Source: Kiritimatiellia bacterium
GTDB taxonomy: Bacteria > Verrucomicrobiota > Kiritimatiellia > RFP12 > UBA1067
Direction of reading: 5' to 3'
Assembly (NCBI GenBank): GCA_017403825.1
Contig: JAFRDO010000010.1
Location: 20,401 to 84,400, forward strand
Length of the DNA stretch: 64,000 nucleotides
Shown: in pieces, positions 1,179-33,869 of the stretch
How the letters are laid out: every line of letters starts with the position of its first letter
How positions within the stretch are numbered: position 1 is the stretch's first letter
Made by a program: the position numbers and the translations under genes
Notes under the pieces: model-generated
The model's input: the letters and a program-made list of their open reading frames with translations, nothing else
What the model was told of the DNA's origin: nothing
Database searches by the model: none

Positions 1179-2207
1179 ATGATCACACAGACATCCATAA
1201 GCTACTACGGGCTCAACTACGTAGAACACGCCGAGGCCGACTTCAAGGAAATGAAGGCTCACGGCGTCAGCCAGGTCATACTGGCCGTCACAGAATTCGA
1301 CTTCGACTTCTGGCGGCCGAACATCCCCGCCATCGTCGCCAAGGCGCACGAGCTGGGTCTCCGCGTCCTTATCGACCCGTGGGGGAACGGCAAGTACTTC
1401 GGCGGCGAGCAGGTCTCGAAGTTCCTGCAGGACAACGTGGAAAACCGCCAGGTAAGCGCACTCACCGGTGAAAAGCTGCCCTACGCATGCTTCAACACGA
1501 ACAGCTACCGCGACTACTTCAAGAACTTCTGCACCACGCTCGCACGCGAGGCGAAGCCCGATGGCTTCTTCTGGGACGAACCGCACTACGCCTTCCCCAA
1601 GGGCATCGCCTCCATCACGGGCGGAGTGGCGGACGACTGGACGTGCTGGTGCCCCGTCTGCCGCAAGCGCTTCGAGGACTACTACGGCTACCCGATGCCG
1701 AAATACATGACGAACGACGTGAAGCAGTTCCGCTGGCGCGAGGCGCTCGTCGTCCTCTCCGAGACGTCGAAGGCGCTGAAGGAAATCGATCCAAAGCTGG
1801 AGATCACCTGCTGCGTGCACGCCACGCAGAACGGCTACTATGTCTCCGAGTACCGCGGCTACGACAACTGGGACATGGTCGGGGCCTGTCCCTACTTCGA
1901 CGTGTTCTCGACGACGATCATCAACTGGGCGCTTCCCGAGGACTTCTTTCTCGACATCACGCGCCGCACGGTCGCCATCGCCAAGAAGTACGGCAAGCAG
2001 TCCGAGCGCTGGTTCATGGGCTACTACAAGCAGCCGAAGGACTGGGCGCAGGTGGCGCGCTGGGTTGATCTCGCGGCCGCCGAGGGCGTAGACCGCATCG
2101 CCGCGTGGACCTACCGCGGCGGCTACGGCACCGTAGTCGGCGCACCCGACGCGCTGAAGCTCTGGGACACGATTGGCGAGAGCTACAGGCGGGTTTTGAA
2201 CAAATAA
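1179..2207 (+). CDS. TIM-barrel glycoside-hydrolase-like protein of unassigned family, with a 'FWDEPH...CPVC' signature
   Basis: An internal ATG at 1179 follows the transporter stop; the upstream part of ORF 1059.. overlaps the transporter. The sequence shows an alternating beta/alpha pattern, a 'WDEPH' acid-like motif and a CxxC that recurs in the GH20-like paralogs. The family assignment is uncertain. Confidence 0.5.
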   Translation: MITQTSISYYGLNYVEHAEADFKEMKAHGVSQVILAVTEFDFDFWRPNIPAIVAKAHELGLRVLIDPWGNGKYFGGEQVSKFLQDNVENRQVSALTGEKLPYACFNTNSYRDYFKNFCTTLAREAKPDGFFWDEPHYAFPKGIASITGGVADDWTCWCPVCRKRFEDYYGYPMPKYMTNDVKQFRWREALVVLSETSKALKEIDPKLEITCCVHATQNGYYVSEYRGYDNWDMVGACPYFDVFSTTIINWALPEDFFLDITRRTVAIAKKYGKQSERWFMGYYKQPKDWAQVARWVDLAAAEGVDRIAAWTYRGGYGTVVGAPDALKLWDTIGESYRRVLNK

Positions 2208-2333
2208 GACAAACAAGTAGAAAAGCAATGCTTAAGCGGCTACGGATACATCACCAAGGTGATCGACACAATCAGGGAAATCGCTGAAAAGTAGAAGTGC
2301 TTGTGATAAAGGAACGCACGGGAAGAGCCAGGG

Positions 2334-3896
2334 ATGCGAATAAATCATGTCGTTTGCATGGCGGTGGTCTTCGCTGCACCGATGTTGGCTTACGGCGGCA
2401 ATGCGGCGAATCCGGACGCGATTGAGCTTGTGCCGTTGCCGACGCCTGTGGAGTTCTCCTGCGACATGGACAGGCCCGTCGCATTCGACGCTTCGGCGTC
2501 CGTCACGGTGGCGTGCCCGGACGCGGGCTCCGTCGCGTGGCTCACGCGGCACTTCGCCGACTGGTACGGCGCGCAGGCACCGAAGGCGACGGGAGGGTTG
2601 CAGCTTGCTGCGACCGGTGCGGGCGCAATAAATTGCGCCCCTCCCGAGGGTGACGAGGCTTACGCGATTTCCGCCGATGCCTCGGGCGTCAGAATCGCGG
2701 CGCGGACGCTTGCGGGCGTCAGGTGGGCGGCGTACACGCTCCGACAGCTGGCAATTGCCAAGCGCGGCACATTCAAGACGGAGGGACGCATCCTTCCGAC
2801 GCTGAAAGTGGCAGACCGTCCGCACCTTGCCTTCCGCGCGGTGCACCTATGCTGGTTCCCGGAAGTGCGTCCCGTGCAAATGGAGCGTGCGATTCGCCTG
2901 GCCGCCCTCCTCAAGTTCAACCATGCAATCATCGAACCATGGGGCATGTACGCGAGCGAGAGGCATCCGTGGTGGCATTGGCCCAATCCAACGATGACCA
3001 AGGAGGAGGTGCGACGTCTGGCGGCGGTCGGAAGAGACCTCGGCATTACGCTCATACCGCAGATTAACGTCTATGGCCACGCCACATCCTCCCGCAGCTG
3101 CACGGTAAAGCACATGACGCTGGACATCCGGCCCGAGTATGAGCCGCTTTTCGAGCCAGGAGGCTGGAACTGGTGCCTTTCCAACCCAGAGACGCAGCGC
3201 GTGCTGCGCGAGCTGATCGCCGAAATGCACGACAACTTCGGGCGCCCGCCGTACTTCCACCTCGGCTGCGACGAAGCCCAGCCGCCGTCATGTCCAGAGT
3301 GCCGCAAGACGCCCTACGCCGAACTTGTATGCAGGCACATCGCCGACCTCGCCGACTTTGTGAAAGCTCGCGGTGCGCGCGCGATGATCTGGCACGACAT
3401 GCTTCTTGAACGCGGCGATCCGCGCTGGGAGGGCTACGTGCACCATGGCACGAAAGCGACAGCCACGCTCGCGGATACGCTTCCGAAGGACGTAATCATC
3501 TGCGACTGGCAGTACTCCTACGGCGACATGAAGGAGACTCGAAAGGACTGGCCGACGATGGCATACTTCAAGGGGAAGGGATTCCCTGTCGCCGGCTGCC
3601 CGTGGATGAACTACAACGCGATGAAGCCGATGGCCGACTACGTTGCCGAGATCGGCGGCTTCGGGTTTGTCGAGACCACGTGGCATCACTTGCGCGGAGA
3701 CGATTGGGTGAAGATGTACAAGTTCGCGTCCGCCGCCGCGTGGGGAACGGACGTCCCGAAACGTCCACCGATGTACGACACCGCTTTTGGCAATGCACTG
3801 CGCCTTGTCGGGCAGGACATGAAGGTGACGGACTACCTAGACACCGGTCACCTCAACTATCAGGTGCCGCCCGCCTGGTGGATCGACAACAACTGA
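2334..3896 (+). CDS. Secreted GH20-like beta-N-acetylhexosaminidase-family hydrolase (paralog A)
   Basis: It has an N-terminal signal peptide. The block 'KVADRPHLAFRAVHLCW...NHAIIEPWG...ITLIPQINVYGHA' resembles the GH20 catalytic TIM barrel, 'FHLGCDEA' resembles the GH20 HxGGDE motif, and 'CPEC' follows it. It is paralogous to 9785..11332. Confidence 0.6.
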   Translation: MRINHVVCMAVVFAAPMLAYGGNAANPDAIELVPLPTPVEFSCDMDRPVAFDASASVTVACPDAGSVAWLTRHFADWYGAQAPKATGGLQLAATGAGAINCAPPEGDEAYAISADASGVRIAARTLAGVRWAAYTLRQLAIAKRGTFKTEGRILPTLKVADRPHLAFRAVHLCWFPEVRPVQMERAIRLAALLKFNHAIIEPWGMYASERHPWWHWPNPTMTKEEVRRLAAVGRDLGITLIPQINVYGHATSSRSCTVKHMTLDIRPEYEPLFEPGGWNWCLSNPETQRVLRELIAEMHDNFGRPPYFHLGCDEAQPPSCPECRKTPYAELVCRHIADLADFVKARGARAMIWHDMLLERGDPRWEGYVHHGTKATATLADTLPKDVIICDWQYSYGDMKETRKDWPTMAYFKGKGFPVAGCPWMNYNAMKPMADYVAEIGGFGFVETTWHHLRGDDWVKMYKFASAAAWGTDVPKRPPMYDTAFGNALRLVGQDMKVTDYLDTGHLNYQVPPAWWIDNN

Positions 3897-4054
3897 CGGC
3901 AAGCCGATGTTGACCGCCATCGCTGCCTGACGAGAGGTCGTCTCCGATGCCATAAAAGAGAGCTTGTCAGAAACGGATGCCATAGCCTCCTTGCTTGATG
4001 TAAGGGCGAGATGGGCTCGCCATAAAATCCACAAGCAGAAAGTGAAGGTGCGCC

Positions 4055-4546
4055 ATGAACAACAACTTCGTGAAATTCGCATTCGTCGGGATGGCCTGCG
4101 CGGCATCCTGCATGACAACGTCCGCTGCGCCAAGAGGCGGCGGCCACGGGCGCCCTGCAGGGGTGGCCCAACAGGCGCGGTCCCCTCATGTCGCACGACC
4201 TGCAGCAGTCAGGCCAAGCGCGGCAGTGCGTACCGTTCCGGCACGTCATTTCAGTCAGCCTGCCGTCGCAAGGCATGGGTACGCCCGTCCGGAACCGCGC
4301 CACCACGCGCCGCCGCCGCCCCGTGCCGTCCGCCGGCATCTCCCTCGCAATGCGCACTATTGGGCGAGACCGGCCGTTCCGATGTGGCGCGTTGGCGCGC
4401 TCCGTGCGTGGGAATGGGTCGAGGCGGAATGGGTAATCTTCGTGAACGGCGTATGCTACTACGGCGACGGCTACTACTACGACGGCTACAACTACTATTA
4501 CAACGGCGCGTACCACACAACCCCGCCGATGTCGATATTCGTGTAG
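4055..4546 (+). CDS. Small secreted hypothetical protein with a Tyr/Gly-rich C-terminus (YYGDGYYYDGYNYYYNG)
   Basis: It has a signal-peptide-like N-terminus (MNNNFVKFAFVGMACAASC) and is followed by a clear intrinsic terminator hairpin. Its composition is unusual, so the coding status is moderately supported only. Confidence 0.4.
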   Translation: MNNNFVKFAFVGMACAASCMTTSAAPRGGGHGRPAGVAQQARSPHVARPAAVRPSAAVRTVPARHFSQPAVARHGYARPEPRHHAPPPPRAVRRHLPRNAHYWARPAVPMWRVGALRAWEWVEAEWVIFVNGVCYYGDGYYYDGYNYYYNGAYHTTPPMSIFV

Positions 4547-4575
4547 CAAAACGAGTACGGCCGAGGCATGCGAGC

Positions 4576-4611
4576 CCCCGTCGGAAACGACGGGGCTTTG
4601 CTTCAGCCTTT
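4576..4611 (+). terminator. Rho-independent terminator downstream of 4055..4546
   Basis: A perfect 8-bp stem CCCCGTCG / CGACGGGG with a GAAA loop (4576-4595) is followed by a T-rich tract (CTTTGCTTCAGCCTTTT). Confidence 0.5.
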
Positions 4612-4727
4612 TGAACGCCTGAAGGATCGGGAACTGCATGCGCCGGCATAATGCAAAATGAGCCGCACCGCTTGAACAATGGCATGCGAATGTTGTATAA
4701 TGAGCGCCACACGAAGGACTGGGAATA

Positions 4728-5552
4728 ATGAACAGACAACTGATAATCGGTGCGGCGGTCGCTTTTGCGGCGTCGCTCGCCTTTGCGAAGCCCGTCACGA
4801 TGATGAGCTACAACATACGCATCGGCTGCGGTCTTAACGGAGCGTTCAAGTTGGCGCCGGGCGACCTCGGCCATCTGCCGCAGGTTGCGAAGGTCATCCG
4901 CGACGTCAACCCGGATTGGGTGGCCATACAGGAAATAGACAGCAAGACCAAGCGCGTCGGGTTCGTTGACCAGACCGCCGAACTGGCCAAGCTCTGCGGC
5001 ATGAAAGGCACTTTCGTGCGCAAGACGCTCAACACGAAGATGAACAAGTTCCGCGTGCAAAACGCCGCTACGGCCGAGGAACTTGACGGAGCTGGCGAGT
5101 ATGGCTTGGCAATCCTCTCGAAAGAGAAGCCCATCAAGGTCTCGAAGGTGCTGGTGCCTGGCTACTGCCATACACGGTGCATCGAGTTCGTGGAGTTCAA
5201 GGACTACGTGGTCGCCTGCACGCACTTTCCGCTGAAAGAGGAGCATTGTCTCGTGGCCGCCAAGGTTGCGTTGGCGAACATTGCCGACTACCGCAAGCCG
5301 GTGTTCCTGGCGGGCGACTTCAACGTTGGCCCCGAATCCAAGACGATGGCAGAGCTGAAAACGGGCATGACGATCCTCAACGATCCGGCGGTCTTCACGT
5401 TCCCGTCATCCGGGCCGCAGTGTACCATCGACTTCATCATGGTCGATACGCCTCATGCCGGGCGCGTTGCCGTAACAGAGCGGCGCGTGATCGCCGATGC
5501 GGAGGCGACGGACCACTGTGCCGTAGTAGTGAAGGCCGACTTGAACCTTTAA
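4728..5552 (+). CDS. Secreted endonuclease/exonuclease/phosphatase (EEP) family protein
   Basis: A signal peptide is followed by the N-terminal EEP motif 'MSYNIRIG' and conserved 'DWVAIQEID' and 'DHCAV' blocks typical of EEP-fold enzymes. Confidence 0.8.
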   Translation: MNRQLIIGAAVAFAASLAFAKPVTMMSYNIRIGCGLNGAFKLAPGDLGHLPQVAKVIRDVNPDWVAIQEIDSKTKRVGFVDQTAELAKLCGMKGTFVRKTLNTKMNKFRVQNAATAEELDGAGEYGLAILSKEKPIKVSKVLVPGYCHTRCIEFVEFKDYVVACTHFPLKEEHCLVAAKVALANIADYRKPVFLAGDFNVGPESKTMAELKTGMTILNDPAVFTFPSSGPQCTIDFIMVDTPHAGRVAVTERRVIADAEATDHCAVVVKADLNL

Positions 5553-5587
5553 GCGCTCGCACTCAGGTAAAACAAGGGAGAATCATC

Positions 5588-6340
5588 ATGCTGAACGACT
5601 ACGGATACATCGACAAGGCGATAGCCAATATCAAGGAAGTCGCCGATAAGCAGGAGGCCAACATCAAGGCCGCAGCGACCCTGATGGCTGATGCGATCGC
5701 CGCCGACAAGCTCATCAACGTCTATGCGGGCGGCGGACACACCACGCTCGCGATGGGAGAGATGTTCTTCCGCGCCGGCGGCCTCGCCAACATCAACCCA
5801 ATGATGGAAACCGCGCTTTCAGTCTTCAACCAGGCGCTCAAGTACCTTGAGCTGGAACGTACCGTAAACTTCGGCGCATCAATAGTGAAGTACTACGGTC
5901 CGAAGGAAGGCGACGTCGTTCTCTTCTTCCACAACATCGGCATCAATCCGGCGACGATCGACGCCGCCGAGGAGTGCAAGAAGCGCGGCTGCAAGATCAT
6001 CGCCGTCGCCTCGTCGTACTGGCAGAACGAAATGCCGAAGGACCACTTCATCCGCCACCCGAACGGCAAGAACCTCTTCGACTATGCGGACGTCTGCATC
6101 GACGACTACAACCCAGTCGGCGATGCGGTGGTGAACGTTCCCGGCATGACGACGCCCATCGGCCCCGTCTCGAACGTAGTTGACTTCACCATCGCCCACC
6201 TTCTCGAGATCGAGACATGCCGCCAGTGCGTCGAGCGCGGCATCGTGCCACCGGTCTGGAACTCGGCCAACGCCCCCGGCGGCGACGAGAAGAACGCAGC
6301 CTACCTCGCGAAGTACAAGCCGCTCGTGAAGTGTCTGTAA
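5588..6340 (+). CDS. SIS-domain protein (UPF0309-like sugar-phosphate isomerase/binding fold)
   Basis: The ATG at 5588 has an AAGGGAG RBS; the longer track ORF 5177.. overlaps the EEP gene. The 'VYAGGGHTTLAMGE' and 'AVASS' patterns fit a SIS fold. It is paralogous to 39191..39892. Confidence 0.65.
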   Translation: MLNDYGYIDKAIANIKEVADKQEANIKAAATLMADAIAADKLINVYAGGGHTTLAMGEMFFRAGGLANINPMMETALSVFNQALKYLELERTVNFGASIVKYYGPKEGDVVLFFHNIGINPATIDAAEECKKRGCKIIAVASSYWQNEMPKDHFIRHPNGKNLFDYADVCIDDYNPVGDAVVNVPGMTTPIGPVSNVVDFTIAHLLEIETCRQCVERGIVPPVWNSANAPGGDEKNAAYLAKYKPLVKCL

Positions 6341-6376
6341 CCGCTCATCAAGTGTCTGTAAACAGGAGAACGAAAA

Positions 6377-8818
6377 ATGAACATCAAGAGCATAGTGGTT
6401 GCGGCTTCGCTGATGGCGCTTTGCGCTTCTGCTTCCGACGTATCCTACCCTTACGCCTCGGGCGATACGTCGCTTGGCGATGGTGCCGTGGTCCTTACCT
6501 ACGAGGAAGGAACGACCGACGTCAAGACGCTGACGGCGACTCCGACAGATGGCGGCACGGTCTCGATCACGGGCGACGCGATGACGTTTGCCGACGACGC
6601 GGCGATCACGCTGTCCACCTCCGGAACGGTCTCCTTCGCCAGCATGGTGACGACGCTTGGCAAACTCTCCCTTTCCCGCAGCGATGGAGCGTATGTCGTC
6701 TGGACGGGAAAGGCGCTCACGCCATCTACAACGGCCTCAGGTGTTGAAGTGTTTGCGGGACTTAACCGTGATACTGATCTTGAGCATTCGTCCATCGTTT
6801 TTGTCGGTGGTGCCGACGGCCCTTGCCCTGGGCGTTTTCACTACGTGAGCGGCCCAAGTAGTGGCATCTATACGCTGAATAATGTCAGACCGGACTATAC
6901 CTATTCCATTCGTCCTCAATTGAGTGGAAATTCACCCATTACGGGCGTCCGCTGTATAACAGGTTCACGTTCGCAACAGTTCGTGGAATATCCAGACGGT
7001 TCGCTATGGAACAGCAAAGGCGCGGAACATTACTGCGGAGAGAGCCAGGCAGTGCCAGGTGGCACGCGGATTGGAAACACATCTGACCTCAAGCTTACAA
7101 AGATAATCGTCCGAAAAAAAGGAATGTCGGAAAAGGTTTGGGTGCGTTTTGACGGCGGTGTGGCGCTGGGCGGCGAAACGTCCGTAGGCGCTGGCGTCGA
7201 GGCTGTGATAGGGGCGTCCGAGGGCGATGGTGCGGTAACGCTTGCCTGTCCGATCACAGGGAATGGCGATGTCCGCATCGCCACGTCTACAGCGACAACG
7301 GCTTTTGCCGGTACGTCGTATTTCGAGCCGTTCATCAACACGTCATGGCAGATTCTTGCTACAAATCGTTCGCTTTCGGCTCTTACGAGCCTTTCCGCAC
7401 ACATGTTGGGCGGAAGCCACAATTATGTTGCGTATGCTGACGTTGGCGGCACGCCAACCGATGCCTATTACATCAAGTACAACCCAGATTCCAACACCGC
7501 CACCTGCCAGTTCCAGTATTGGACAGGAAGTGGGCTCAAATTTGTTAAAGCCCAGCTTCGGCAGAATGGAGTAAATGTAGAGATCAAGGGCGTTGCCGCA
7601 GGATATTACACCAACAGTCAGTACAACTACAACAACAATGAGCCCCATGATTTTGACAATGATTCCAACAACGCTAATTTTGCAACGTCTGCGACGGCAT
7701 CAGGATATGGTATCCATTATATCACAGCCACGTTTGCTGGGGCGACGGGTATGGGTGTCGCGAGGCTTGAAAGTACGATGAACGCTATGTTCGGTAGCAT
7801 ATTGACCTTTGATGGAAGCAATGGCCCATTGCATGTAACCGTCACCAACCAGAACGCTTTCCCCATCTGCGGCGTGGTGAACGTCGGCACGAATGCAGAC
7901 GTGGCGTTGCGGGTAAAAGGATTGGGTCTTACATCGGGCGTTTCAGGAGGCACAAGCAAGATTGTCGTCCAGCGAGGCGGCATTTTGAGCCGTGGTGGCG
8001 GAGCGAATGGCCAGATTGGAACCTATCAGGATTTTGTCCTTGACGGTGGAACGTATGAAAGCATCGACTATAATGTTTATCAGAGCTACATCACTTTGAT
8101 GAATGGGGCTCACATGATAGGTGCTTCACCTCCGAGGACGGTGTACAGCTATTCCCCGCAATATTGGAGGGTGAGAGGCACAAGCCCTTCATTTATCGAC
8201 AATGGGATTAACATTTATGGCTCAGGTACTGCAAGCGGTGGAGAGTCAAAAAGATTCAGGATTGACGTTGCGGATGTCACAGGCGATGATGATGTTGATT
8301 GCACAGTTTCAAAGATATTTCATAACGATGGCAATCAGCAGCGTTTTTCGTATTTCAGGTTCGAGAAGTTGGGCGCAGGCACCATGCTTCTTGCAGGCTC
8401 TGGTTTGGCAGTGAAGCTGGAAACGTTTGTCAGCGGCGGTACGTTCCTTCTTGGGGCGAGCGGGATTGCGACAAACGAGTTTGTGCTGTGCGGCGGTAAC
8501 CTTGCGGTGGCGGCGAACGTCACCAACAACATTGGTGCGCTCACGGTGAGCAACGCCTGCACGATTGCGGTCGGCACGGGCGGGTCGCTCTCGTTCGCGT
8601 CGTTCACGGCGGATGAAGGACTTCAGCCGAAAGCAATCACGATCGATGCGCCGTTGGAAGGCAATGTCATCAAGTTCGACACTACTCTTACGGACGAGGA
8701 GCGCAACTTATTCCGCTGGAAGGATAGCGCGGCGCCGACGGGCGCAAGGCGCGTCGATCAGGACGCGAACGGCTACCTGCATCCGCACTCCGGTGGAATG
8801 TTGATCTTTATAAAGTAG
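6377..8818 (+). CDS. Large secreted protein with autotransporter-associated beta-strand (PATR-like) repeats, paralog 1
   Basis: An AGGAGA RBS precedes the signal peptide MNIKSIVVAASLMALCASA. The body is Gly/Thr-rich beta-helix-like sequence with 'GAGTxxL.G' repeats. The N-terminal ~100 aa and the C-terminal ~60 aa are shared with 16466..18499. Confidence 0.6.
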   Translation: MNIKSIVVAASLMALCASASDVSYPYASGDTSLGDGAVVLTYEEGTTDVKTLTATPTDGGTVSITGDAMTFADDAAITLSTSGTVSFASMVTTLGKLSLSRSDGAYVVWTGKALTPSTTASGVEVFAGLNRDTDLEHSSIVFVGGADGPCPGRFHYVSGPSSGIYTLNNVRPDYTYSIRPQLSGNSPITGVRCITGSRSQQFVEYPDGSLWNSKGAEHYCGESQAVPGGTRIGNTSDLKLTKIIVRKKGMSEKVWVRFDGGVALGGETSVGAGVEAVIGASEGDGAVTLACPITGNGDVRIATSTATTAFAGTSYFEPFINTSWQILATNRSLSALTSLSAHMLGGSHNYVAYADVGGTPTDAYYIKYNPDSNTATCQFQYWTGSGLKFVKAQLRQNGVNVEIKGVAAGYYTNSQYNYNNNEPHDFDNDSNNANFATSATASGYGIHYITATFAGATGMGVARLESTMNAMFGSILTFDGSNGPLHVTVTNQNAFPICGVVNVGTNADVALRVKGLGLTSGVSGGTSKIVVQRGGILSRGGGANGQIGTYQDFVLDGGTYESIDYNVYQSYITLMNGAHMIGASPPRTVYSYSPQYWRVRGTSPSFIDNGINIYGSGTASGGESKRFRIDVADVTGDDDVDCTVSKIFHNDGNQQRFSYFRFEKLGAGTMLLAGSGLAVKLETFVSGGTFLLGASGIATNEFVLCGGNLAVAANVTNNIGALTVSNACTIAVGTGGSLSFASFTADEGLQPKAITIDAPLEGNVIKFDTTLTDEERNLFRWKDSAAPTGARRVDQDANGYLHPHSGGMLIFIK

Positions 8819-8860
8819 CTGCGCATGGCACGAGCGGTTTAACGCCTTGAGATATAGACT

Positions 8861-9754
8861 ATGAACGCAAAAATCATCCTTGCGGCTGGCGCCATGCTTG
8901 CCGCGGCTGCCGCCGTCGCGGCGCAGCATCCCGCCCCGCCGATCCCGCCGAACTGGGAGCCGATCCTCACGCGCCCCGGCGCACTCGCGAAAGGGAGCGG
9001 ACACCTTCAAGGCATGTGCGTCACGTCCAACGCGATCTACGGAACGCTCCACGACGGCATCTACAAGTTCGACTGGTATGGACGGATGATCATGCACGTC
9101 CGTGCGGACAAGCACACTGGCGACATCTGCTTCTGGAACGGCAAGCTTTACACGGCAGTCTGCGGAAAGCAGGAGACGCCAGGATTCCGCGGACGTATCG
9201 ACGTGTGGGACGAGAACCTCAAACGCGTCGGCTCCATGGAGTTCAAGCGTTCCGCCGACGGCATCACGTGTCTGGACGGCGTTCTGTATGTGGGGCTGGG
9301 GCCGGCGCGCAATCCGGAAAAGCCATTTCGCGGCAACTACTTCGGCAAGTTCGACGCCGAGACGCTTGAGCCGCTCTGCGAGCCATTTCTCGTGGATCAC
9401 GGCTATGACGTGACTGCCGGTGTGCAGAACATGGCGACGGACGGAGAGAAGCTGTACATCAACTTCTATACGCCTGAGGAGGAGTATCCGTGCTTCTTCG
9501 TGTTCGACAAGGACTTCAAGGTGCTTCAGTCTCATGTGTTCGGCTGGCGGCATGGAGTGGATCTCGTGGGCGGGGGCGAGCCAGGGGAGGTGCGCCTCAT
9601 CTACGCGCTTACGATAAACTGCTGGTCCAAGGCGAGCATGCTGCAGCTTGATCCGGCGCCGTCCCAGACACTTTTCCGATATGCGGAATTGAAAGACGGG
9701 AAGATTCGTGACATTACACGCTACATCAAGTTTCGCAACGAGATGAAGAGGTAG
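8861..9754 (+). CDS. Secreted protein of the uncharacterised 'HxQGMC' domain family (copy 1)
   Basis: It carries a signal peptide. The conserved blocks [56 protein letters not shown] and GVQNMATDGEK are shared with 55129..56052, 56197..57072 and an internal segment of 23246..28318. Confidence 0.6.
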   Translation: MNAKIILAAGAMLAAAAAVAAQHPAPPIPPNWEPILTRPGALAKGSGHLQGMCVTSNAIYGTLHDGIYKFDWYGRMIMHVRADKHTGDICFWNGKLYTAVCGKQETPGFRGRIDVWDENLKRVGSMEFKRSADGITCLDGVLYVGLGPARNPEKPFRGNYFGKFDAETLEPLCEPFLVDHGYDVTAGVQNMATDGEKLYINFYTPEEEYPCFFVFDKDFKVLQSHVFGWRHGVDLVGGGEPGEVRLIYALTINCWSKASMLQLDPAPSQTLFRYAELKDGKIRDITRYIKFRNEMKR

Positions 9755-9784
9755 CGGAGCGCACAAAAAAGGAGATCAGACAAG

Positions 9785-11332
9785 ATGAAACGGATGCTTG
9801 CGGCCTTCGGGCTTTGTGCGGTTGTTCTGAACGGGTCGGCTGCGGAGAACTTTGCCTTCGCGCCGTATGTGGAGCCGAATCCAGTGACGATGTCGGTCGA
9901 TTCCAATACGCTGGTGCGGCTCGACAGGAGCCAGACAGTGACGATTGCATGCGCGGACGGCCTGGAGCAGGCGGTGGAATGGGCTGAGGCGCGTTTCAGT
10001 GAATGGTTCCGTCTCACGAAGACGGGGTGGCTATTTCCATCTGTCAATGCGCCGCGCGTAGCGGCGGCGACGTTCGCTGGCGAACCGGTCGCGGGTGGCG
10101 ACGAGGCTTACGAGCTGGCGGCGCGTCCCGACGGGGTGTCGGTGCGGGCCAACACGCTTCAAGGCGTGCGCTATGCGCTCTACACGCTTCGTCAGACGAT
10201 TCTCGCCATGCCGCGTGACGTGCGCAAGGTCGAATGGTATGCGATGCCGGCACTGAAGGTGAAGGATGCACCGGCAATGAAGTTCAGGGGCATTCACCTT
10301 GGCTGGTACGTCAACCGCACCACGCCCGCAGAGATTGAGAAGAGGCTCCGTCTCGCTGCTTACCTCAAGTACAACTATGCGGTGATCGAACCTTGGGGCA
10401 CATTCCGTTCTGAGCGGCATCCGTGGTGGGGCTGGAAGGAGGGAACGATGACGCCCGACGTCACGCGGAGGCTCGTTAAGCTCGGCAAGGAGCTGGGCAT
10501 CACGCTCATTCCCCAGATCCCGGCCTTTGGCCACGCCTCGATGGGCATCACCTCCCCCGGACGCCACGCCATCTTGGACGCGCACGGGGAATATGCGCCG
10601 CTCTTCGAGTCGCTGAACGGCTGGAACTGGTGCATCTCCAATCCCGAGACGCTCAAGGTGCAGTTCGAGATCATCGACGAGCTGATGGAACTGTTCGACA
10701 ACCCGCCTTACTTCCACATCGGATGCGACGAGCCGGCAAAGCCGAACTGCCCGCGCTGCCTTGCCGCCGATTACCGTGCGCTGACGATCAAGCACATCAC
10801 GGCGCTCCATGACGGGCTGAAGGCGCGCGGTACAACGCCGATGCTCTGGCACGACATGTTCTTAAAGAAGCATGACCCGAAATGGCCGGGTTCCGTCGCC
10901 AACGGCACGGACGAATCGATCACGATCCTGGACGAACTGCCGCATGACATGGTGATCTGCGACTGGGTCTACGGACTGAAGTGCCCGGAGGGGAACTACG
11001 CGTCGCTCAAGTATTTCAAGGACAAGGGGTTTGAGGTCGTATCCTGTCCCTGCCACAAGGTCGACAACACGATGGTGCAGAGAGAATCAGTCCTCAAGCT
11101 CGGGCTGAAGGGAATGCTCGTAACCACATGGAGCTACGGGCAGGGCAAGGAGAAAGGCAAGGTGTTCGCCGATACGTTCGCTGGCGGCGCTGCGGCGGCG
11201 TGGGGATCGACCTATGAGGAAAGCCCGCTCTGGAAGTGGCATTATGATCTTGACCTGATCCGCAACCTGCGTGACGTGGTGCACGACATGAGTCTTGACG
11301 ATCACAATGCCACTGGCACATACATGGACTGA
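9785..11332 (+). CDS. Secreted GH20-like beta-N-acetylhexosaminidase-family hydrolase (paralog B)
   Basis: An AAGGAG RBS precedes a signal peptide. The gene is collinear with 2334..3896, sharing 'NYAVIEPWG', 'ITLIPQIPAFGHA', 'FHIGCDEPAKPNCPRC' and 'MLWHDM'. Confidence 0.6.
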   Translation: MKRMLAAFGLCAVVLNGSAAENFAFAPYVEPNPVTMSVDSNTLVRLDRSQTVTIACADGLEQAVEWAEARFSEWFRLTKTGWLFPSVNAPRVAAATFAGEPVAGGDEAYELAARPDGVSVRANTLQGVRYALYTLRQTILAMPRDVRKVEWYAMPALKVKDAPAMKFRGIHLGWYVNRTTPAEIEKRLRLAAYLKYNYAVIEPWGTFRSERHPWWGWKEGTMTPDVTRRLVKLGKELGITLIPQIPAFGHASMGITSPGRHAILDAHGEYAPLFESLNGWNWCISNPETLKVQFEIIDELMELFDNPPYFHIGCDEPAKPNCPRCLAADYRALTIKHITALHDGLKARGTTPMLWHDMFLKKHDPKWPGSVANGTDESITILDELPHDMVICDWVYGLKCPEGNYASLKYFKDKGFEVVSCPCHKVDNTMVQRESVLKLGLKGMLVTTWSYGQGKEKGKVFADTFAGGAAAAWGSTYEESPLWKWHYDLDLIRNLRDVVHDMSLDDHNATGTYMD

Positions 11333-12545
11333 CGTGTCAAAACCCCTGCTCATATCTGCAGTCGCCATGTCGTTGCCCTGCCTGGCGATCGGCGGGCATC
11401 TGACGTTTGACGAGCCTGCCCCCGGACGCGATTCGGGGCGCATATACTATTATGTCCCCGACGGGCTTGACCTTTCCCGCCCTGCGCCGCTGCTGGTGTT
11501 CCTTCACGGCGGCGGCATCGCGTCCACCGATTCCACGCCCGGCAGCTACTTCAGCGAAGAGCGGCGCGCCCTGATGCCGGATGTCACGAATGCACCGTTC
11601 ATCGTGGCGGCGCCGTCCGCACCGGTCACCGGCGACAGTTCCCGCTGGAACCATGCCGGGACATCTAAGCTCATCGATGCCACGATCGCCGCCGCCAGCC
11701 GGAAGTTCCGCATTGACCAAGACCGCATTTTCCTAGGCGGACATTCGATGGGTTGCTACGGGGCGTGCCATCTCGGGCAGATACTTGCCGACAGGTTCGC
11801 CGGCGTGTGGCTGAGTTCAGGCGCATGGTGGGAGGCGGACTTCCGGGCGTTCTGGGGAACGCCGGTCTATATTCAGCATGGCGCGCTTGACTGCTCGCCG
11901 CGTCCCGGCTATTCCGGCACGCACAAGAGACCTCGCCGCCACCACTGGTGCGGAGTGAGCTTTGCCAGGTGCGCACATGACCTGATGACCCGTCATGGCG
12001 TGGAGCATGTCTACGACGAACACTCGGAAGGCCATTCGCTCGCGTTCCCTGCGGCTAAGGCGGCCATGCGGCGGTTCTTTGCCTGGGCGAAAGACAAGCG
12101 ACGCAATCCATACGCGAAGAAGGTGGCTTTGGTCACGCCATGCGGCACGAAGCATCCTGATCTTGAGCAGGCCTCGAAGTCGCGTTGGCTAGAACTTGCG
12201 GAAAGGTCTGCCGGCGAGATCGAAGTCGATGGCATCGAGCTGTACGGGCCGCCAATCGCCAAGACGGATGACGATCTCACGCGTCAGACCTATTCGCCTG
12301 TCAGACGGCGGTGGAACGACGGCGCGCGCATCATCGCCGAGAATCTCGGCGGAAACCACTTCAAGGTCGAGACCGAGAATGTGAAGCAATTCCTCATCTA
12401 CCTCTCCCCGCAGATGGGCGATCTCTCCAGGCCGTTCACGGTTGATCTTGGTACGGACGGAATCCGCACGATAGTCGCAGAGCCGATTTCTCCCAATGGC
12501 GACTATTCCGCTCGTCTTTCGGTCGTGGTGAAGGAAGGTTCATGA
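11295..12545 (+). CDS. Alpha/beta-fold esterase (GHSMG nucleophile elbow)
   Basis: It has 'LLVFLHGGG' and the 'GGHSMGCYGA' GxSxG motif. The true start may be the internal ATG at 11367, which avoids overlap with the upstream gene. Confidence 0.6.
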   Translation: MTITMPLAHTWTDVSKPLLISAVAMSLPCLAIGGHLTFDEPAPGRDSGRIYYYVPDGLDLSRPAPLLVFLHGGGIASTDSTPGSYFSEERRALMPDVTNAPFIVAAPSAPVTGDSSRWNHAGTSKLIDATIAAASRKFRIDQDRIFLGGHSMGCYGACHLGQILADRFAGVWLSSGAWWEADFRAFWGTPVYIQHGALDCSPRPGYSGTHKRPRRHHWCGVSFARCAHDLMTRHGVEHVYDEHSEGHSLAFPAAKAAMRRFFAWAKDKRRNPYAKKVALVTPCGTKHPDLEQASKSRWLELAERSAGEIEVDGIELYGPPIAKTDDDLTRQTYSPVRRRWNDGARIIAENLGGNHFKVETENVKQFLIYLSPQMGDLSRPFTVDLGTDGIRTIVAEPISPNGDYSARLSVVVKEGS

Positions 12546-13645
12546 ACTCCGGCAGGCTGCGATCGCTCGATGCCCTGCGGGGGTTTGACATGATCTGGAT
12601 TCTCGGTCTGGAGCAGGTCATGCGCGGCTTCTGCAAACTGTTCCCTGGCGGATCGGACTGGTGGTTCGAGCACCAGTTCCATCATGTGGAATGGGAGGGG
12701 CTGGCGTTCTACGACACTATCTTTCCACTGTTCGTGTTCATTGCCGGCGTGAGCTTTCCGTTCTCCTACGCGAAGCAGGTGGAGCGCGGGGATTCGCCTC
12801 TGCGCATCCATGCGCGGATATTCCGCCGCGCGTCGGCCCTGATTCTGCTCGGCATGGTGTATAACGGAATCCTCGCCTTCAACTTCACGGACTTCCGCTA
12901 TGCGAGCGTGTTGGGCAAGATCGGCATCGCCTGGATGGTGGCCGCGCTGTGGTATGTCCATTTCGGGGTTAACGCCAGGCTTGCGATATGCGGCGCAACG
13001 CTCGTGGGCTACTGGGCGCTTCTGCAGCTGACTGCGCCTGACGCACCGGCTGGCTTTGGGCCGTTCACGCCAGAGGGGTGCTTCCCTGGCTATCTTGACA
13101 GGTTGGGCTTCACGCCCGGCCAGTTCTACATCCCCGGACTGCTGGAACCGTCCGGAATACCCGTATCGCTCTTCGGTTCGGCCACTGCCATGATGGGCAT
13201 GTTCGCGGGCGACCTTCTGCGCTCGGGACGCGACTCTCTCACGGCTGAGCGCAAGGTTCTGTATCTTGCGCTTTCCGGGCTGGCGGTGGGGCTTGCCGGA
13301 TGGGGCGTCTCGTTCAGCTGTCCGATCATAAAGAAGCTCTGGACGCCAAGCTTCATGCTTGTGGTAGGCGGATATTCGTTCATGATTCTGGCGCTGTTCT
13401 ACTGGATCATTGACGTGCTGCATCATGACCGCTGGTGCTTTTTCCTGCAGGTTGTCGGAGTGAACTCGATAACGATCTACATGCTTAGGCGCATTGTAGG
13501 CTACCGGCAGATTTCGCAGTTCCTGTTTGGCGGCGTGGCGTCATGGTTCCCGAGCCCGGAGCTTGTCGAGTCCGCGGGAATCGTGCTGCTATGCTGGTTG
13601 ACTTGCTGGTTTCTTGACCGGCATCGGGTATATCTGAAAGTATAA
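12542..13645 (+). CDS. Polytopic membrane protein of the HGSNAT-like acyltransferase family (heparan-alpha-glucosaminide N-acetyltransferase-like, DUF1624/DUF5009 type)
   Basis: The ATGA start overlaps the preceding stop. The N-terminus 'RLRSLDALRGFDMIWILG' is characteristic of this family, and multiple TM helices are present. Confidence 0.55.
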   Translation: MNSGRLRSLDALRGFDMIWILGLEQVMRGFCKLFPGGSDWWFEHQFHHVEWEGLAFYDTIFPLFVFIAGVSFPFSYAKQVERGDSPLRIHARIFRRASALILLGMVYNGILAFNFTDFRYASVLGKIGIAWMVAALWYVHFGVNARLAICGATLVGYWALLQLTAPDAPAGFGPFTPEGCFPGYLDRLGFTPGQFYIPGLLEPSGIPVSLFGSATAMMGMFAGDLLRSGRDSLTAERKVLYLALSGLAVGLAGWGVSFSCPIIKKLWTPSFMLVVGGYSFMILALFYWIIDVLHHDRWCFFLQVVGVNSITIYMLRRIVGYRQISQFLFGGVASWFPSPELVESAGIVLLCWLTCWFLDRHRVYLKV

Positions 13646-13658
13646 GAAAGGTAACGAC

Positions 13659-14657
13659 ATGCGTTGCACAAAAATGATTTTCTCTTTGGCTTCCTTCGCG
13701 GCGGTTTGCCTTGTCGCAGCTGGGGATTCGGGCGTGGGACCGGCGTTCAAGTTGTTTCAGGTGCCCGGAATGCCCGCGCCGGTCTACTATTTCGCGCCTC
13801 ACCGCATTGAGGACGGAAGCAGATGCGAGACGGCCGCCATCCTGATTCACGGCTGGGGCGGAGGATTAAGGCTTACCGGAGACGTGGAACCGTTCGCGGC
13901 GGCGCTCGCCAAGGCCGTCGGCCCGTCGAATACGGCTCCGTATGTCGTATCACCGCTTTTCCCGCGAAGGAGAATCCTTGTCAAGAATGGCATAAAGGAT
14001 GACGGGAGGGCCGTATGGAACGATTCCTGGGGACGGGACTTATCCAAGCATGGCAAGCCAGACGACGATTGGCGCGGCGGAGGCGATGCCGCGGGCGTGA
14101 AGCTCAGTTCGTTCGATGTGGTAGATGCGATTCTTCTGGCCCTTGGCGACAAGGAACGGTATCCCGCCCTTAAACGCGTGATCGTTACCGGGTTCTCCGC
14201 CGGCGGACAGTTCGTTGGCAGGTATGTCGCCGTCGGCAAGGGGTTCGTGCGCGATGGCGTGGAGGTGCGATATGCCGCAATGGCCCCATCGACCGAGTTG
14301 CGGCTTGATGACGATGTGATATGGCACTATGGCATTATGGGGCGTCCGCGCTATTCGGCGCAAATGACGCGCGACCAGATGCTGAACAACCTTTCCCGCC
14401 GCCGCGTGTGGCGTGCATGCGGAACGGAAGACGTACTCGGCAAGGCCCTTGATGTCTGTCCGGAAGCAATGAGACAGGGGGAGAACCGCTATGCGCGTTT
14501 CCGCAATCTCGAGAAGTATCTGAAGCAATTCCCGGAGTGGTCGAAGCAGGTTTCGTTCCATGCCATCGAAGGCATCGGACACGAATCCAAAGTGGCCCAT
14601 ACCGAGAAGGTCTTCATCGACTACGCCCTTGGAAACGATGCGGTGGACAGACAATAA
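13659..14657 (+). CDS. Secreted alpha/beta hydrolase (GFSAGG serine motif)
   Basis: It has a signal peptide, a 'HGWGGG' oxyanion-like block and a 'TGFSAGGQ' GxSxG motif. Confidence 0.6.
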   Translation: MRCTKMIFSLASFAAVCLVAAGDSGVGPAFKLFQVPGMPAPVYYFAPHRIEDGSRCETAAILIHGWGGGLRLTGDVEPFAAALAKAVGPSNTAPYVVSPLFPRRRILVKNGIKDDGRAVWNDSWGRDLSKHGKPDDDWRGGGDAAGVKLSSFDVVDAILLALGDKERYPALKRVIVTGFSAGGQFVGRYVAVGKGFVRDGVEVRYAAMAPSTELRLDDDVIWHYGIMGRPRYSAQMTRDQMLNNLSRRRVWRACGTEDVLGKALDVCPEAMRQGENRYARFRNLEKYLKQFPEWSKQVSFHAIEGIGHESKVAHTEKVFIDYALGNDAVDRQ

Positions 14658-14697
14658 CTGACGCCGAGTCCGCCATGACGCAGGCCTTGCGCAGGCC

Positions 14698-15918: not shown

Positions 15919-15949
15919 GCCGGTTAGTATATCACAGGATCGGCTTGCC

Positions 15950-16014
15950 TTGCAATAATTACAACCTATGTTGCAAAGTTTACATTTTGCAACGACGACG
16001 CGGTTTGATATACT
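15950..16014 (+). promoter_or_regulatory. Putative sigma70-type promoter and TTGCAA direct-repeat operator array upstream of the ASRT-like gene
   Basis: Three TTGCAA hexamers lie at 15950, 15971 and 15987. The last can serve as a -35 element, with a 16-nt spacer to TATACT at 16009-16014. The ATG is at 16056. Confidence 0.35.
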
Positions 16015-16055
16015 GCCTGTGTATCGCGGACAAGCCAGACACGGAGGGTGAAACT

Positions 16056-16415: not shown

Positions 16416-16465
16416 CCACCCGCTACACGCTAACCACTATCCACTAATCACAACCGGTAAAACTC

Positions 16466-18499
16466 ATGAACATCAAAAGCATACTGATCGCGACCTCGCT
16501 GATGGCGCTTGGCGCTTCGGCGGCCGATGTGTCCTACCCCTACACACCAGGCAACACCAACCCCGGCGCGGGCGTGACAATCGCCTTCGACGGCGACAAC
16601 AACATCACGTCGATTTCGGCGACGCCGACGGACGGCGGCTCGATTACCCTAACCGGCGGCGCTCCGACATTCGCAGCCGGCGCAACGATTACAGTGAATG
16701 CCCCGGGTTCGCTCGTGTTCACCGGACCGGCGACGGCGAATGGTGCGCTCGCCATAAACCGTGGTGACGACGCATACCTTGCCTGGTCGTCCGACACGGC
16801 CTTGAACGGCACTCTTACGGAGAGTCCGTGCTTTACCGGCCTATCCAGCACCGATCGCGATGAAGGAAGAATCGAGTTTTTCAGGCTTGTCTCGACAGGC
16901 CCTACAGACGACAATAACGTTTTCGGCCAACAGGGGCATTGGAATCTGATTACCTATACAGGATCCGGAATCTTTCAGTTCAACAAGGTATCGGCCGCTT
17001 ATGCGTTCACTGCCCGCGTTCAGCTCGGCCCTAAAACGTCCGGCGAGAACAATCTGTACGCTCGTTGCCTCAACGCCATCCGCTCGCCACGTTTCGGCCT
17101 TTACCCCGATGAAGAGGCTGGATGGGCGACGCTCAACATGTATAATGCGTGGAGCGGGAAAGCCCATCATACCGAACGCGGGCGGTATAACATCACAGAT
17201 TCTTACGGCACGGGTCTGGGTTCGACGGAGAACCTTGGCTTCCGGAAGATAATCATACGCCGCACAACCGTTCCCAACGGCCCGGTGTCTGTTCGTTTCA
17301 ATGGTGGCGCAACGCTTGGCTCAGAAACCACGATTGGCGCGGGGCTTGAGGCGGTGTTTGTGGCGACGGCCACCGATGCCGTTTCGCTTGGAAGTGCAAT
17401 TTCCGGCGATGGAGACCTCAGAATCGAGACGGCGTCGTCCGACGCGACTACGACGCTTGACTGTGATATGTCGGGCCTTGTCGGCGGAAAATTCACCATC
17501 GAGGGAAAAGACAACGCTATCCACACGGTCATGCGGACTGCAGACACGAAGTTTCCATCTGGTGGCGAAGTGCATATCAACACCAACGCCATCCTCACCC
17601 TCTATGGCAACACGGTAAGCACAAGTTATGCCTGGAAGCAGTCGCTGTTCGTGCATCGCGGTGGAACGCTGAAGACTATAGACAAGACCTGGCAAATCAG
17701 GCCCAAGCAGCAGATTATGCTCGATGGCGGTACATTCAACGTCCGCAACGGAGTGTTCTACCTCAACTACCTGGTTCTTTCAAATGCAACCATGAACGGC
17801 ACATCATCGCCGCGCTCGGTTTACAATGAATCGTCCGGGCAGTACTGGCGGGTGATAGGCACCGAGCCTTCGTATCTGACAAGTACGTATGGTGTTAACG
17901 TTTATGGGGCCTCCAGCAAGAGTTCCGCCGTCCCGTTCAGATTAGATGTCGGGGATGTGGCGGATGGAGTCGATTGCTTCATGAGTCGCATTACTTGTGA
18001 CACGGGCGGTACGAACGTTCCGTGGTTCTGGTTCGAAAAATATGGAGCGGGCACACTTAAGATTTCCGAGAATTCGAAGGGCGTGCGCATGGAGTCGAGG
18101 ATTTACAACGGAACTCTGCTATTGGCAGGAAACAGTATCATGACGAACGAGGTGCAACTGTTGGGCGGTAATTTCGCGATAGATGCAGGAAAGTCCAACG
18201 CCCTCGGAAACCTCACGGCGACCACCAATGCAACGCTCACGGTTGGGGCGGGTGGTTCTCTGTCGTTCGCGTCATTCACGCCGGGTGCGGGTCTGGCAGA
18301 GAAATCAATTGTCATTGACGCGCCGATGGAAGGGAATCTCGTTAGAATTGGCACGAACGGCAACGGTCTTGCGGCAGAGCATTGCAAATACTTCCGCTGG
18401 AAGGACGCTACGGACGCGACAAAACTCTGGCGCGTGGAGCAGGATGCTGACGGATATCTACATCCATCGATAAAGGGCGTAGTGATACTCGTTTATTGA
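16466..18499 (+). CDS. Large secreted PATR-repeat protein, paralog 2
   Basis: It has the signal peptide MNIKSILIATSLMALGASA. Its N- and C-terminal modules are shared with 6377..8818, including the terminal 'FRWKD...D.DGYLHP' followed by a hydrophobic strand. Confidence 0.6.
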   Translation: MNIKSILIATSLMALGASAADVSYPYTPGNTNPGAGVTIAFDGDNNITSISATPTDGGSITLTGGAPTFAAGATITVNAPGSLVFTGPATANGALAINRGDDAYLAWSSDTALNGTLTESPCFTGLSSTDRDEGRIEFFRLVSTGPTDDNNVFGQQGHWNLITYTGSGIFQFNKVSAAYAFTARVQLGPKTSGENNLYARCLNAIRSPRFGLYPDEEAGWATLNMYNAWSGKAHHTERGRYNITDSYGTGLGSTENLGFRKIIIRRTTVPNGPVSVRFNGGATLGSETTIGAGLEAVFVATATDAVSLGSAISGDGDLRIETASSDATTTLDCDMSGLVGGKFTIEGKDNAIHTVMRTADTKFPSGGEVHINTNAILTLYGNTVSTSYAWKQSLFVHRGGTLKTIDKTWQIRPKQQIMLDGGTFNVRNGVFYLNYLVLSNATMNGTSSPRSVYNESSGQYWRVIGTEPSYLTSTYGVNVYGASSKSSAVPFRLDVGDVADGVDCFMSRITCDTGGTNVPWFWFEKYGAGTLKISENSKGVRMESRIYNGTLLLAGNSIMTNEVQLLGGNFAIDAGKSNALGNLTATTNATLTVGAGGSLSFASFTPGAGLAEKSIVIDAPMEGNLVRIGTNGNGLAAEHCKYFRWKDATDATKLWRVEQDADGYLHPSIKGVVILVY

Positions 18500-18533
18500 T
18501 CGATGTACAGCCCGCGACAATGTTGAACAGGCG

Positions 18534-33825: not shown

Positions 33826-33869
33826 CTAGTTCTCCAGCTCAATATAACTCGCATAAAAGGAACATATCA

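Follow-up and report, generated by a model that had tools for sequence, protein, structure and literature searches.

A conserved C-terminal heptapeptide on unrelated, predicted exported proteins of Kiritimatiellae and its relation to described sorting signals

For diderm bacteria other than Proteobacteria and Bacteroidota, the way in which large soluble proteins come to be displayed at the cell surface is, to our knowledge, not established. The Kiritimatiellae, which break down glycans from host and diet, are abundant in ruminant guts and have received very little study. Here we consider two paralogous genes, p1 and p2, in a 64,000-nucleotide stretch of a ruminant-gut Kiritimatiellae metagenome-assembled genome (MAG; assembly GCA_017403825.1, contig JAFRDO010000010.1, positions 20,401 to 84,400 of the forward strand), hereafter called the window, and more precisely the C-terminal ends of the two encoded proteins, in which a module of about 80 amino acids (aa) with the strings FRWKD and GYLHP is followed by a terminal heptapeptide, the tail. 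A preliminary description of this DNA had taken the C-terminus for a possible sorting or anchoring signal; for the module this is unlikely, since it is a predicted fold element of one family, whereas for the hydrophobic strand behind it the idea gained ground, the tail being found on at least five unrelated families.

Several kinds of C-terminal signal invite comparison with this tail. The C-terminal domain (CTD) of the type IX secretion system (T9SS; Por_Secre_tail) is a 70-100-aa immunoglobulin-like domain of Bacteroidota, whose last strand also tends to end hydrophobic and then basic, and which has in common with the present case that a C-terminal element is placed on otherwise unrelated secreted proteins. 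Here, however, the portable part comprises 7-11 residues in an organism of the Planctomycetes-Verrucomicrobia-Chlamydiae (PVC) group, the 80-aa module is confined to one family, and neither TIGR04183 nor TIGR04131 of NCBIfam gave a match. Signals of the tripartite class are built from a short motif, a transmembrane helix and a basic cluster (PMC11980579). Like the tail, these signals (LPXTG/sortase, PEP-CTERM/exosortase, GlyGly-CTERM/rhombosortase and MYXO-CTERM/myxosortase) lie at the extreme C-terminus of many unrelated signal-peptide proteins within one lineage and follow the order of small motif, hydrophobic stretch and basic end. The tail differs in its hydrophobic run of 5-6 residues, below transmembrane length, and in a single terminal Arg or Lys in place of a cluster (20/31 in the beta-helix family of p1 and p2, family A, and 107/111 in an unrelated family, family B). 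No PEP, LPXTG, GG or Cys signature stands ahead of the tail, where only Gly, Pro or Ala at position -7 is conserved, and the NCBIfam CTERM models gave no match at E<=1 in p1 or p2. In the literature we found no paper linking Kiritimatiellae with PEP-CTERM, exosortase or C-terminal secretion signals.

The beta-signal of outer-membrane proteins (OMPs), which is recognised by BamA/BamD, has the consensus zeta-x-G-x-x-[aromatic/Phi]-x-[aromatic/Phi] (PMC10945584). It is likewise a short C-terminal strand on Sec-exported proteins with the identical G-x-x-Phi-x-Phi spacing, and the tail would also share its mode of recognition, a main-chain beta-augmentation tolerant of many sequences. A further comparison is offered by the Llp peptides, inhibitory C-termini of lectin-like bacteriocins (LlpA/B, pyocin L) that mimic the beta-signal and act in trans on the edge of a beta-barrel (bioRxiv 10.64898/2026.09.25.754295). 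These also combine a soluble carbohydrate-binding-type domain with a short amphipathic C-terminal peptide and a capping residue, but they are hypervariable, Trp-rich and found in Pseudomonas, whereas the tail is aliphatic, conserved across unrelated families and found in Kiritimatiellae. In all, we could not match the tail to any described sorting signal, and the statement of the preliminary description that PEP-CTERM, LPXTG and the T9SS CTD do not fit was confirmed.

The terminal heptapeptide and its carriers

The two genes and their terminal heptapeptides are the following.

6377..8818, + strand: p1, an 813-aa, predicted secreted right-handed beta-helix protein (P0031, IJH50_01425)
16466..18499, + strand: p2, a 677-aa paralog lacking the insert of p1 (P0001, IJH50_01465)
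8795..8815, + strand: p1 heptapeptide GMLIFIK-COOH, the portable tail, which fits G-x-x-Phi-x-Phi-[RK]$
18476..18496, + strand: p2 heptapeptide GVVILVY-COOH, a variant ending in Tyr, in which G-x-x-Phi-x-Phi stops one residue before the C-terminus

Both open reading frames (ORFs) had been given as paralogs at these positions; this was borne out, and both lie on the plus strand. Their products are identical to the hypothetical proteins IJH50_01425 and IJH50_01465 of the MAG, and BLASTP aligns p1 aa 1-310 with p2 aa 1-331 (38% identity, 1e-48) and p1 aa 464-812 with p2 aa 331-676 (41% identity, 3e-64), leaving as the sole gross difference an insertion of about 150 aa in p1 (aa 311-463). Because the alignment spans the whole length, the similarity is not limited to the ends, and p1 and p2 are, as their aligned sequences indicate, genuine full-length paralogs. 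The shared signal peptide and N-terminal domain of the preliminary description were recovered as well (near-identical N-termini, and a mean pairwise identity of 0.63 over aa 21-110 across 31 family members), and the C-terminal strings it quoted are present exactly as written. That the two proteins differ in their central regions was overstated, with bodies that align at 38-41%, and is true of the p1 insert.

Within family A, for which 31 members were compared, the tail has Gly at -7 in 28 proteins and an aliphatic residue (or Phe) at both -4 and -2 in every one of them, and ends at -1 with Arg or Lys in 20, the rest having Tyr, Gln, His, Asn or Phe. The most divergent members, P0048 and P0056, retain it (GTVLIMR and STHIIIR) although their FRWKD string is degenerate, and in the fusion protein P0050 a low-complexity linker of about 35 aa lies ahead of it. 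In the AlphaFold (AF2) models of p1 and p2 the heptapeptide is undocked beside confidently modelled residues: the predicted local distance difference test score (pLDDT) is below 50 for p1 aa 810-813, and averages 46 over p2 aa 671-677, with aa 674-677 below 50.

A first regular expression for the tail was derived from family A before being applied to the other ORFs of the window and of the loci fetched by then (labelled L), and it matched four non-family proteins among 106 genes, compared to 0.02-0.10 expected from the internal frequency of the motif. These four, which have no detectable similarity to the beta-helix family, head the list of carriers.

L005, 712 aa: non-family carrier, ends ...PGVIISIK
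L005, 695 aa: non-family carrier, ends ...GGATIVIR
L002, 663 aa: non-family carrier, a beta-helix of Chlam_PMP/DUF5123 type, ends ...LGMILSFR
L003, 396 aa: non-family carrier, ends ...IGMMLFFR
L009, 1072 aa: unrelated carrier with LamG_3, ends ...DGMLIIVR
L025, 999 aa: unrelated carrier with a duplicated beta-helix, ends ...AATIVIMR
L039, 1268 aa: unrelated carrier with three LamG repeats, ends ...KPFLMIVR

All-against-all BLAST divides the carriers into six unrelated groups, and at least five carriers lie within about 86 kb of one MAG. The 712-aa protein represents family B, which has at least 368 homolog clusters, all in Kiritimatiellae, and in its 111 full-length members the tail is kept nearly throughout (Arg or Lys at -1 in 107, Val, Ile or Leu at -2 in 108, Ile, Leu or Met at -4 in 109, and Gly, Pro or Ala at -7 in 107), preceded by a GGG-x-ER-P-F linker. 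In the pooled 541 kb with 348 genes, where 0.16 carriers would be expected beyond the two seeded groups, four were found (Poisson P = 2.6e-5, internal-frequency null). The family of nb297, the gene directly downstream of p1, served as a control that also bears signal peptides, and the tail occurs in 0/116 of its proteins.

Homology between the families beyond the tail was rejected, given that the hidden Markov model (HMM) of the module scores below 0 on family B and that hhalign of the beta-helix family against family B yields no alignment beyond the last 16 columns, which are flush with the C-terminus. A cause at the DNA level (for instance a terminator, repeat or site of recombination in common) was rejected on the grounds that the tails differ in codons and the DNA downstream is unrelated, from which it follows that selection acts on the protein. 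Moreover, all carriers with a complete N-terminus bear predicted signal peptides, and the association of tail and signal peptide has a Fisher P of 0.02 as flagged and 0.001 after correcting one mis-called start, in a test that is not independent of the choice of loci. Judged from these sequences, at least six unrelated groups of predicted exported proteins in Kiritimatiellae end in this heptapeptide, a tail that is conserved, portable and similar to the beta-signal.

In a 765-aa group B protein at L007 12618-14915, a further 16 aa (WRRGAAAARKFGIIRT) come after a perfect tail (...FGMVFMVR); a lost stop codon may account for this, and the protein could be a natural test of the need for the C-terminal position of the tail. 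In the same locus, the 439-aa product of 14912-16231, which comes directly after three tail-bearing genes, was considered as a GspK-like minor pseudopilin of type II secretion and rejected, its N-terminus (RGSALLMALWIIAVLAVMVL) being similar by eye and without Pfam support.

The module is confined to one family

The C-terminal module that precedes the tail in p1 and p2 has the following extent.

8561..8794, + strand: p1 C-terminal module, aa 729-806 (TIAVGTGGSLSFASF...IDAPLEGN...FRWKD...GYLHPHSG), modelled as the last rungs and end-piece of the beta-helix
18233..18475, + strand: p2 C-terminal module, aa 590-670, with pLDDT 79-96 across aa 581-670

The p1 module is modelled as short rung strands, one helix and three strands, with pLDDT of 89-93 over aa 701-780 and then 72, 90 and 67 over aa 781-810. 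Correspondingly, the p2 model has strands at aa 589-593, 598-606, 615-618 and 626-628, a helix at aa 637-642, and end-piece strands at aa 643-646 (FRWK), 654-659 (LWRVEQ) and 664-667 (YLHP). The module would, on these models, form the last rungs of the helix, followed by a short helix and a three-stranded end-piece.

A profile built from 29 modules was run against 1.84 billion (1.84e9) representative proteins at E<=1e-3, and of its 30 matches about 20 are real. These score 35-142 bits and are full-length family members, contig-end fragments or rare deletion derivatives; without exception, the full-length members carry the module on the same beta-helix body, at its extreme C-terminal end. The remaining matches are sums over repeats that each reach at most 10 bits. 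On this account the occurrence of the module on other proteins was rejected, both for the phage tail-fibre-like P0045, P0053, P0054, P0058 and P0059 and for the SprB-like repeat proteins P0051 and P0057 and for P0049/P0052. The five phage tail-fibre-like proteins contain many copies of an uncurated repeat of about 38 aa, 'RFxTDxEKxKLxGIExxANxYxHP', and its weak resemblance to FRWKD...GYLHP (at most 9 bits per copy) was judged to be chance similarity. Furthermore, a scan of 185,579 species genomes returned four module loci in two ruminant MAGs, all of them family members.

Since it is restricted to one family and modelled as the end of the helix, the module is not a portable tag; sequence and model together make it a predicted fold element of that family and not a portable sorting domain. 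Of the checks that the preliminary description had suggested for its proposed tag, the module HMM search for further proteins thus returned only the same family among the 1.84e9 representatives, and no sortase- or exosortase-like neighbour came to light in 16 neighbourhoods. An annotation trap is corrected at the same time: the 70-80-aa module is the predicted end of one family's fold, and the proteins are not, as had been stated, PATR proteins (autotransporter-associated beta-strand repeat): neither p1 and p2 nor any other of the 32 family members examined matches PF12951 at E<=1, and p1 and p2 have no NCBIfam match (TIGR02601) either. The same precomputed Pfam annotation did flag a true PATR protein elsewhere in the MAG (L005).

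Three short metagenomic proteins, P0035 (104 aa), P0055 (63 aa) and P0043 (116 aa), join both conserved ends of the family, in that a signal peptide, with or without the motif 'ETYTYAPDPG', is attached directly to the module or to its last 35 aa. They are deletion derivatives.

Candidate recognition of the tail and competing explanations

The best explanation overall, which we regard as evenly balanced between right and wrong, is that p1 and p2 are paralogs with a family-specific module and a portable tail recognised in trans. As a whole, it takes the family to be a small one of Sec-exported right-handed beta-helix proteins, adhesin- or lyase-like and restricted to Kiritimatiellae; it places p1 and p2 in host-glycan utilisation loci; and it treats the last seven residues, [G/P/A]-x-x-aliphatic-x-aliphatic-[R/K]-COOH, as a separate portable element, often behind a linker that is flexible or contains Pro/Gly. 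Once exported by Sec, the protein would present its free terminal strand to a shared component of the cell envelope, which would recognise it in trans via beta-strand augmentation; this is suggested by the form of the tail, a short and extended stretch with alternating aliphatics that is strictly C-terminal, and by its position behind flexible linkers on unrelated folds of exported proteins. The leading candidate for the receptor would be of Omp85/BamA type, or another receptor with a beta-sheet edge, because the spacing of the tail is that of the beta-signal plus one basic capping residue: G-x-x-Phi-x-Phi is placed one residue before the C-terminus in 28/31 proteins of family A, 75/111 of family B, 2/4 of groups C-F and 0/116 of the control, and in other registers almost never. 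It has been found that a short C-terminal peptide of soluble lectin-type proteins can augment strand 1 of BamA (bioRxiv 10.64898/2026.09.25.754295), which makes an Omp85-type acceptor mechanistically plausible. By this means, large proteins of binding type would be targeted to the cell surface or tethered there.

A more specific claim goes with this reading, namely that the tail constitutes a so far undescribed sorting or surface-tethering system of Kiritimatiellae. In it, a beta-signal-like tag devoid of a transmembrane helix would pass large soluble proteins, of glycan-binding or adhesin type, to a receptor in the envelope through strand augmentation, be it a dedicated outer-membrane beta-barrel or another. 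We put it forward tentatively, as possible rather than probable. If true, a seven-residue tag of this kind would join the few types of C-terminal sorting signal that have been described, and a simple sequence rule would predict the surface proteome of Kiritimatiellae; the beta-signal-like spacing also yields a testable hypothesis for the partner, an Omp85/BamA-type strand acceptor.

Several observations weigh against recognition in trans by a beta-signal receptor. The tail ends in Arg or Lys, in the proportions given above, and not in an aromatic or large hydrophobic residue as the OMP beta-signal does; aromatics at -4 or -2 are limited to two proteins per family at most, and just 10/31 and 50/111 proteins satisfy the polar position of the beta-signal. 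The carriers are, by annotation and model, soluble beta-helix, LamG or PMP-type proteins with no beta-barrel. No candidate receptor or processing enzyme recurs beside the carriers in the 16 neighbourhoods: there is no sortase, exosortase, rhombosortase or CAAX-protease gene in them, and a sortase-, exosortase- or Omp85-like neighbour as partner of the tail was rejected. The low terminal pLDDT may be ordinary terminal fraying. As for the counts, two of the four extra carriers (L025 and L039) were found after position -7 had been relaxed to Gly, Pro or Ala and with family B already seen, the sampled loci were picked via tail-bearing or neighbouring genes and are not whole proteomes, and signal peptides were called by a crude heuristic and by eye. 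Beside the tail, a 236-aa signal-peptide protein at L009 19168-19878 ends ...PFVNGYF, a canonical-looking aromatic OMP beta-signal, which suggests (n = 1) that true barrel proteins of the lineage keep the aromatic terminus, unlike the R/K-capped tail.

Among the rival explanations, plain paralogy would attribute the shared C-terminus, tail included, to common ancestry in a gene family of recent duplication, with a role no greater than completing the beta-helix fold. Whole-length homology agrees with it, as do a module that is confined to the family and modelled within the fold, and a number of only about 3-4 copies per genome. This covers the module but not the tail, which occurs on at least five unrelated families (among them LamG-type, PMP-type beta-helix and 712-aa proteins), ranks with their best-conserved features, and is missing from the control (0/116; P = 2.6e-5 for the carriers outside the seeded groups). 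Plain paralogy is refuted for the tail by this cross-family occurrence, and as an account of the whole we consider it unlikely. Slightly less probable still is a convergent intramolecular strand, by which the tail would pack onto its own domain, for example covering the edge of a hydrophobic sheet, without any recognition from outside. The alternating aliphatics do look like a buried edge strand, and AF2 often scores ordered terminal residues low; yet near-identical tails (GM[LMI]I.[VI][RK]) stand on unrelated folds behind flexible linkers (GGG-x-ER, or the 35 aa of P0050), both AF2 models leave the tail undocked beside confident residues, and packing leaves a conserved basic residue with a free carboxylate unexplained.

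PDZ domains bind the last 4-7 residues of their ligands together with the free carboxylate by beta-augmentation, and a tail that is short, extended and strictly C-terminal would suit binding to a periplasmic Prc/Ctp/DegP-like protease or chaperone, in which case it would be a signal of quality control or processing and not of sorting. Given that typical PDZ/Tsp ligands end hydrophobic whereas the tail ends in Arg or Lys in 107/111, that a degradation tag on large binding-type proteins alone is hard to explain, and that no PDZ protein is found beside the carriers, we think this quite unlikely. Antagonism, for which we see very little likelihood, would have the carriers deliver a beta-signal-mimicking peptide to the BamA of competitors, like the lectin-like bacteriocins of Pseudomonas. 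Its appeal lies in a short amphipathic peptide at the C-terminus of a lectin-type or beta-rich binding domain (concanavalin-like LamG in groups D and F) and in the binding region of p1, recombined between close relatives as in a receptor arms race. However, Llp peptides are the most variable part of their proteins and have Trp or aromatic dyads, while the tail is the most conserved part and aliphatic; the carriers are 650-1270 aa long, several per genome, with Sec signal peptides and in glycan-utilisation operons with XylR-type regulators, and no immunity-like gene stands out. Least probable of all is a miniature signal of the sortase, exosortase or rhombosortase class, which would entail retention in the inner membrane and cleavage by a peptidase dedicated to sorting. 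The tail agrees in layout (Gly, hydrophobic run, basic end) and in its place at the very end of Sec substrates from numerous families, but a run of 5-6 residues is too short for a transmembrane helix, there is one basic residue, and the PEP/LPXTG/GG signature, the CTERM match at E<=1 and the sortase-like gene near carriers are all wanting, as described above.

The beta-helix family, its variable middle and neighbouring genes

Outside the module and tail, the following features of p1 and p2 were delimited.

6377..6433, + strand: p1 predicted Sec signal peptide, aa 1-19, with an A-S-A cleavage motif (sequence reading, hydrophobicity heuristic)
6437..6736, + strand: p1 conserved N-terminal domain, aa 21-120, the most conserved region of the family (0.63 mean pairwise identity)
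7307..7765, + strand: p1 inserted all-beta domain, aa 311-463, without counterpart in p2 (BLASTP gap)
16466..16522, + strand: p2 predicted Sec signal peptide, aa 1-19 (sequence reading)

The N-termini of p1 and p2 are near-identical and signal-peptide-like (MNIKSI..LMAL.ASA followed by.DVSYPY), a string 'AL..SA.D.SY.YTPG' is conserved family-wide, and aa 4-16 are modelled in both proteins as a helix of low pLDDT. Mean pairwise identity among the 31 members is 0.63 over aa 21-110, 0.59 in the C-terminal module and 0.43-0.47 in the body. In the AF2 model, aa 336-453 of the insert domain form long antiparallel strands; the domain is carried by the members of about 800-860 aa and is missing from the subfamily of about 675 aa. 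Within the window p1 and p2 are the only copies of the family, and a third paralog, P0011 (IJH50_02840), is on another contig of the same MAG. The family fold is modelled as a right-handed beta-helix of the pectin-lyase-like or autotransporter-passenger-like kind, with matches to solved beta-helices, Foldseek against PDB giving only weak generic beta-helix matches.

In comparison with right-handed beta-helix passengers and adhesins (pertactin, Pet, TibA, Vag8, HxuA and tapirins) and with the capping or autochaperone regions at their C-termini, the family is at most 16% identical to any solved structure and is without a translocator beta-barrel, a two-partner secretion (TPS) domain or PATR repeats. 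Neither a classical autotransporter nor a two-partner system is apparent: the protein stops in the models 7 residues past the end-piece, with no barrel, the best TPS match is not significant (0.026, in 1/32 members), and no Omp85 or ShlB gene that could be a TpsB partner lies nearby.

The locus L004, from Kiritimatiellae RGIG5820, is syntenic with positions 2000-15000 of the window, and its flanking genes are 88-98% identical in protein. The p1 ortholog in it (7832-10258) is only 59% identical overall, with 88-93% over aa 1-120, 79-93% over aa 746-813 and 30-70% in the middle. Indeed, the middle of the L004 gene is nearest to P0026/P0028/P0024 (75%, compared to 52% to p1), and that of p1 is nearest to P0030 (87%), whose ends resemble p1 less. 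From these regional identities and nearest relatives it follows that the ends follow the locus and the middle is exchanged by recombination; the comparison indicates cassette-like recombination with predicted breakpoints near nucleotides 6721 and 8434. The exchanged middle explains the impression of conserved ends and different centres that the raw sequence gives. In such an arrangement the N-terminal domain and the module would be the constant frame of the protein, and the helix body with the insert its variable part. Constant ends with a swapped middle fit a surface-exposed binding protein, and the mosaic evolution of p1 suggests diversifying pressure, as on proteins of this kind.

Two observations concern the same family. 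The GC content is 0.557-0.569 over positions 6001-10000 and 16001-18000 of the window, compared to about 0.59-0.63 in the flanks, and these dips over p1 and p2 are compatible with exchanged cassettes or with amino-acid composition. At L002 6400-7544, directly upstream of a full-length paralog, lies a 5'-truncated and frameshifted family remnant (insert domain and C-terminal 199 aa, tail intact), which may be a decaying tandem copy or a recombination donor.

The gene behind p1 and its relatives in the window are listed below.

8861..9754, + strand: nb297, a 297-aa secreted, probably beta-propeller protein, directly downstream of p1
55129-56184, - strand: nb297 paralog
56197-57072, - strand: nb297 paralog
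25475-26242, within ORF 23246-28318: nb297-like stretch

No Pfam match was obtained for nb297, and its weak PDB sequence matches are to designed 6-blade propellers and to glutaminyl cyclase. Its family, likewise without Pfam match, has at least 195 clusters in Kiritimatiellae and Opitutaceae. Homologs of nb297 follow members of the beta-helix family in L003, L004 and L012, with stop and start overlapping in L012, and in P0050 a family member has an nb297-like domain as an N-terminal fusion (E 2e-31). Taking all carriers, nb297 follows them in the window and in L003, L004, L012, L010 and L009. As a general receptor of the tail it was rejected, with no carrier near the copies in L013-L016 or near the paralogs at window 55129-57072; these carrier-free loci imply that the link holds only for part of the beta-helix family.

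A conserved XylR-ASRT-M24-M81 set occurs at window 14698-21118, L012 5541-12951 and L010 558-10804, and the tail-bearing gene in it varies in position and family. In the window p2 stands between ASRT and M81, in L012 a p2-like and an nb297-like gene come after M81, and in L010 the slot holds unrelated proteins of 761 and 723 aa (the latter ending ...RGSVLIVF) and then nb297. At window 23246-37187 there are three consecutive, apparently translationally coupled giant ORFs of 1690, 1836 and 1121 aa, none of which ends with the tail, and the first of these, the 1690-aa one, has a signal peptide and the internal nb297-like domain.

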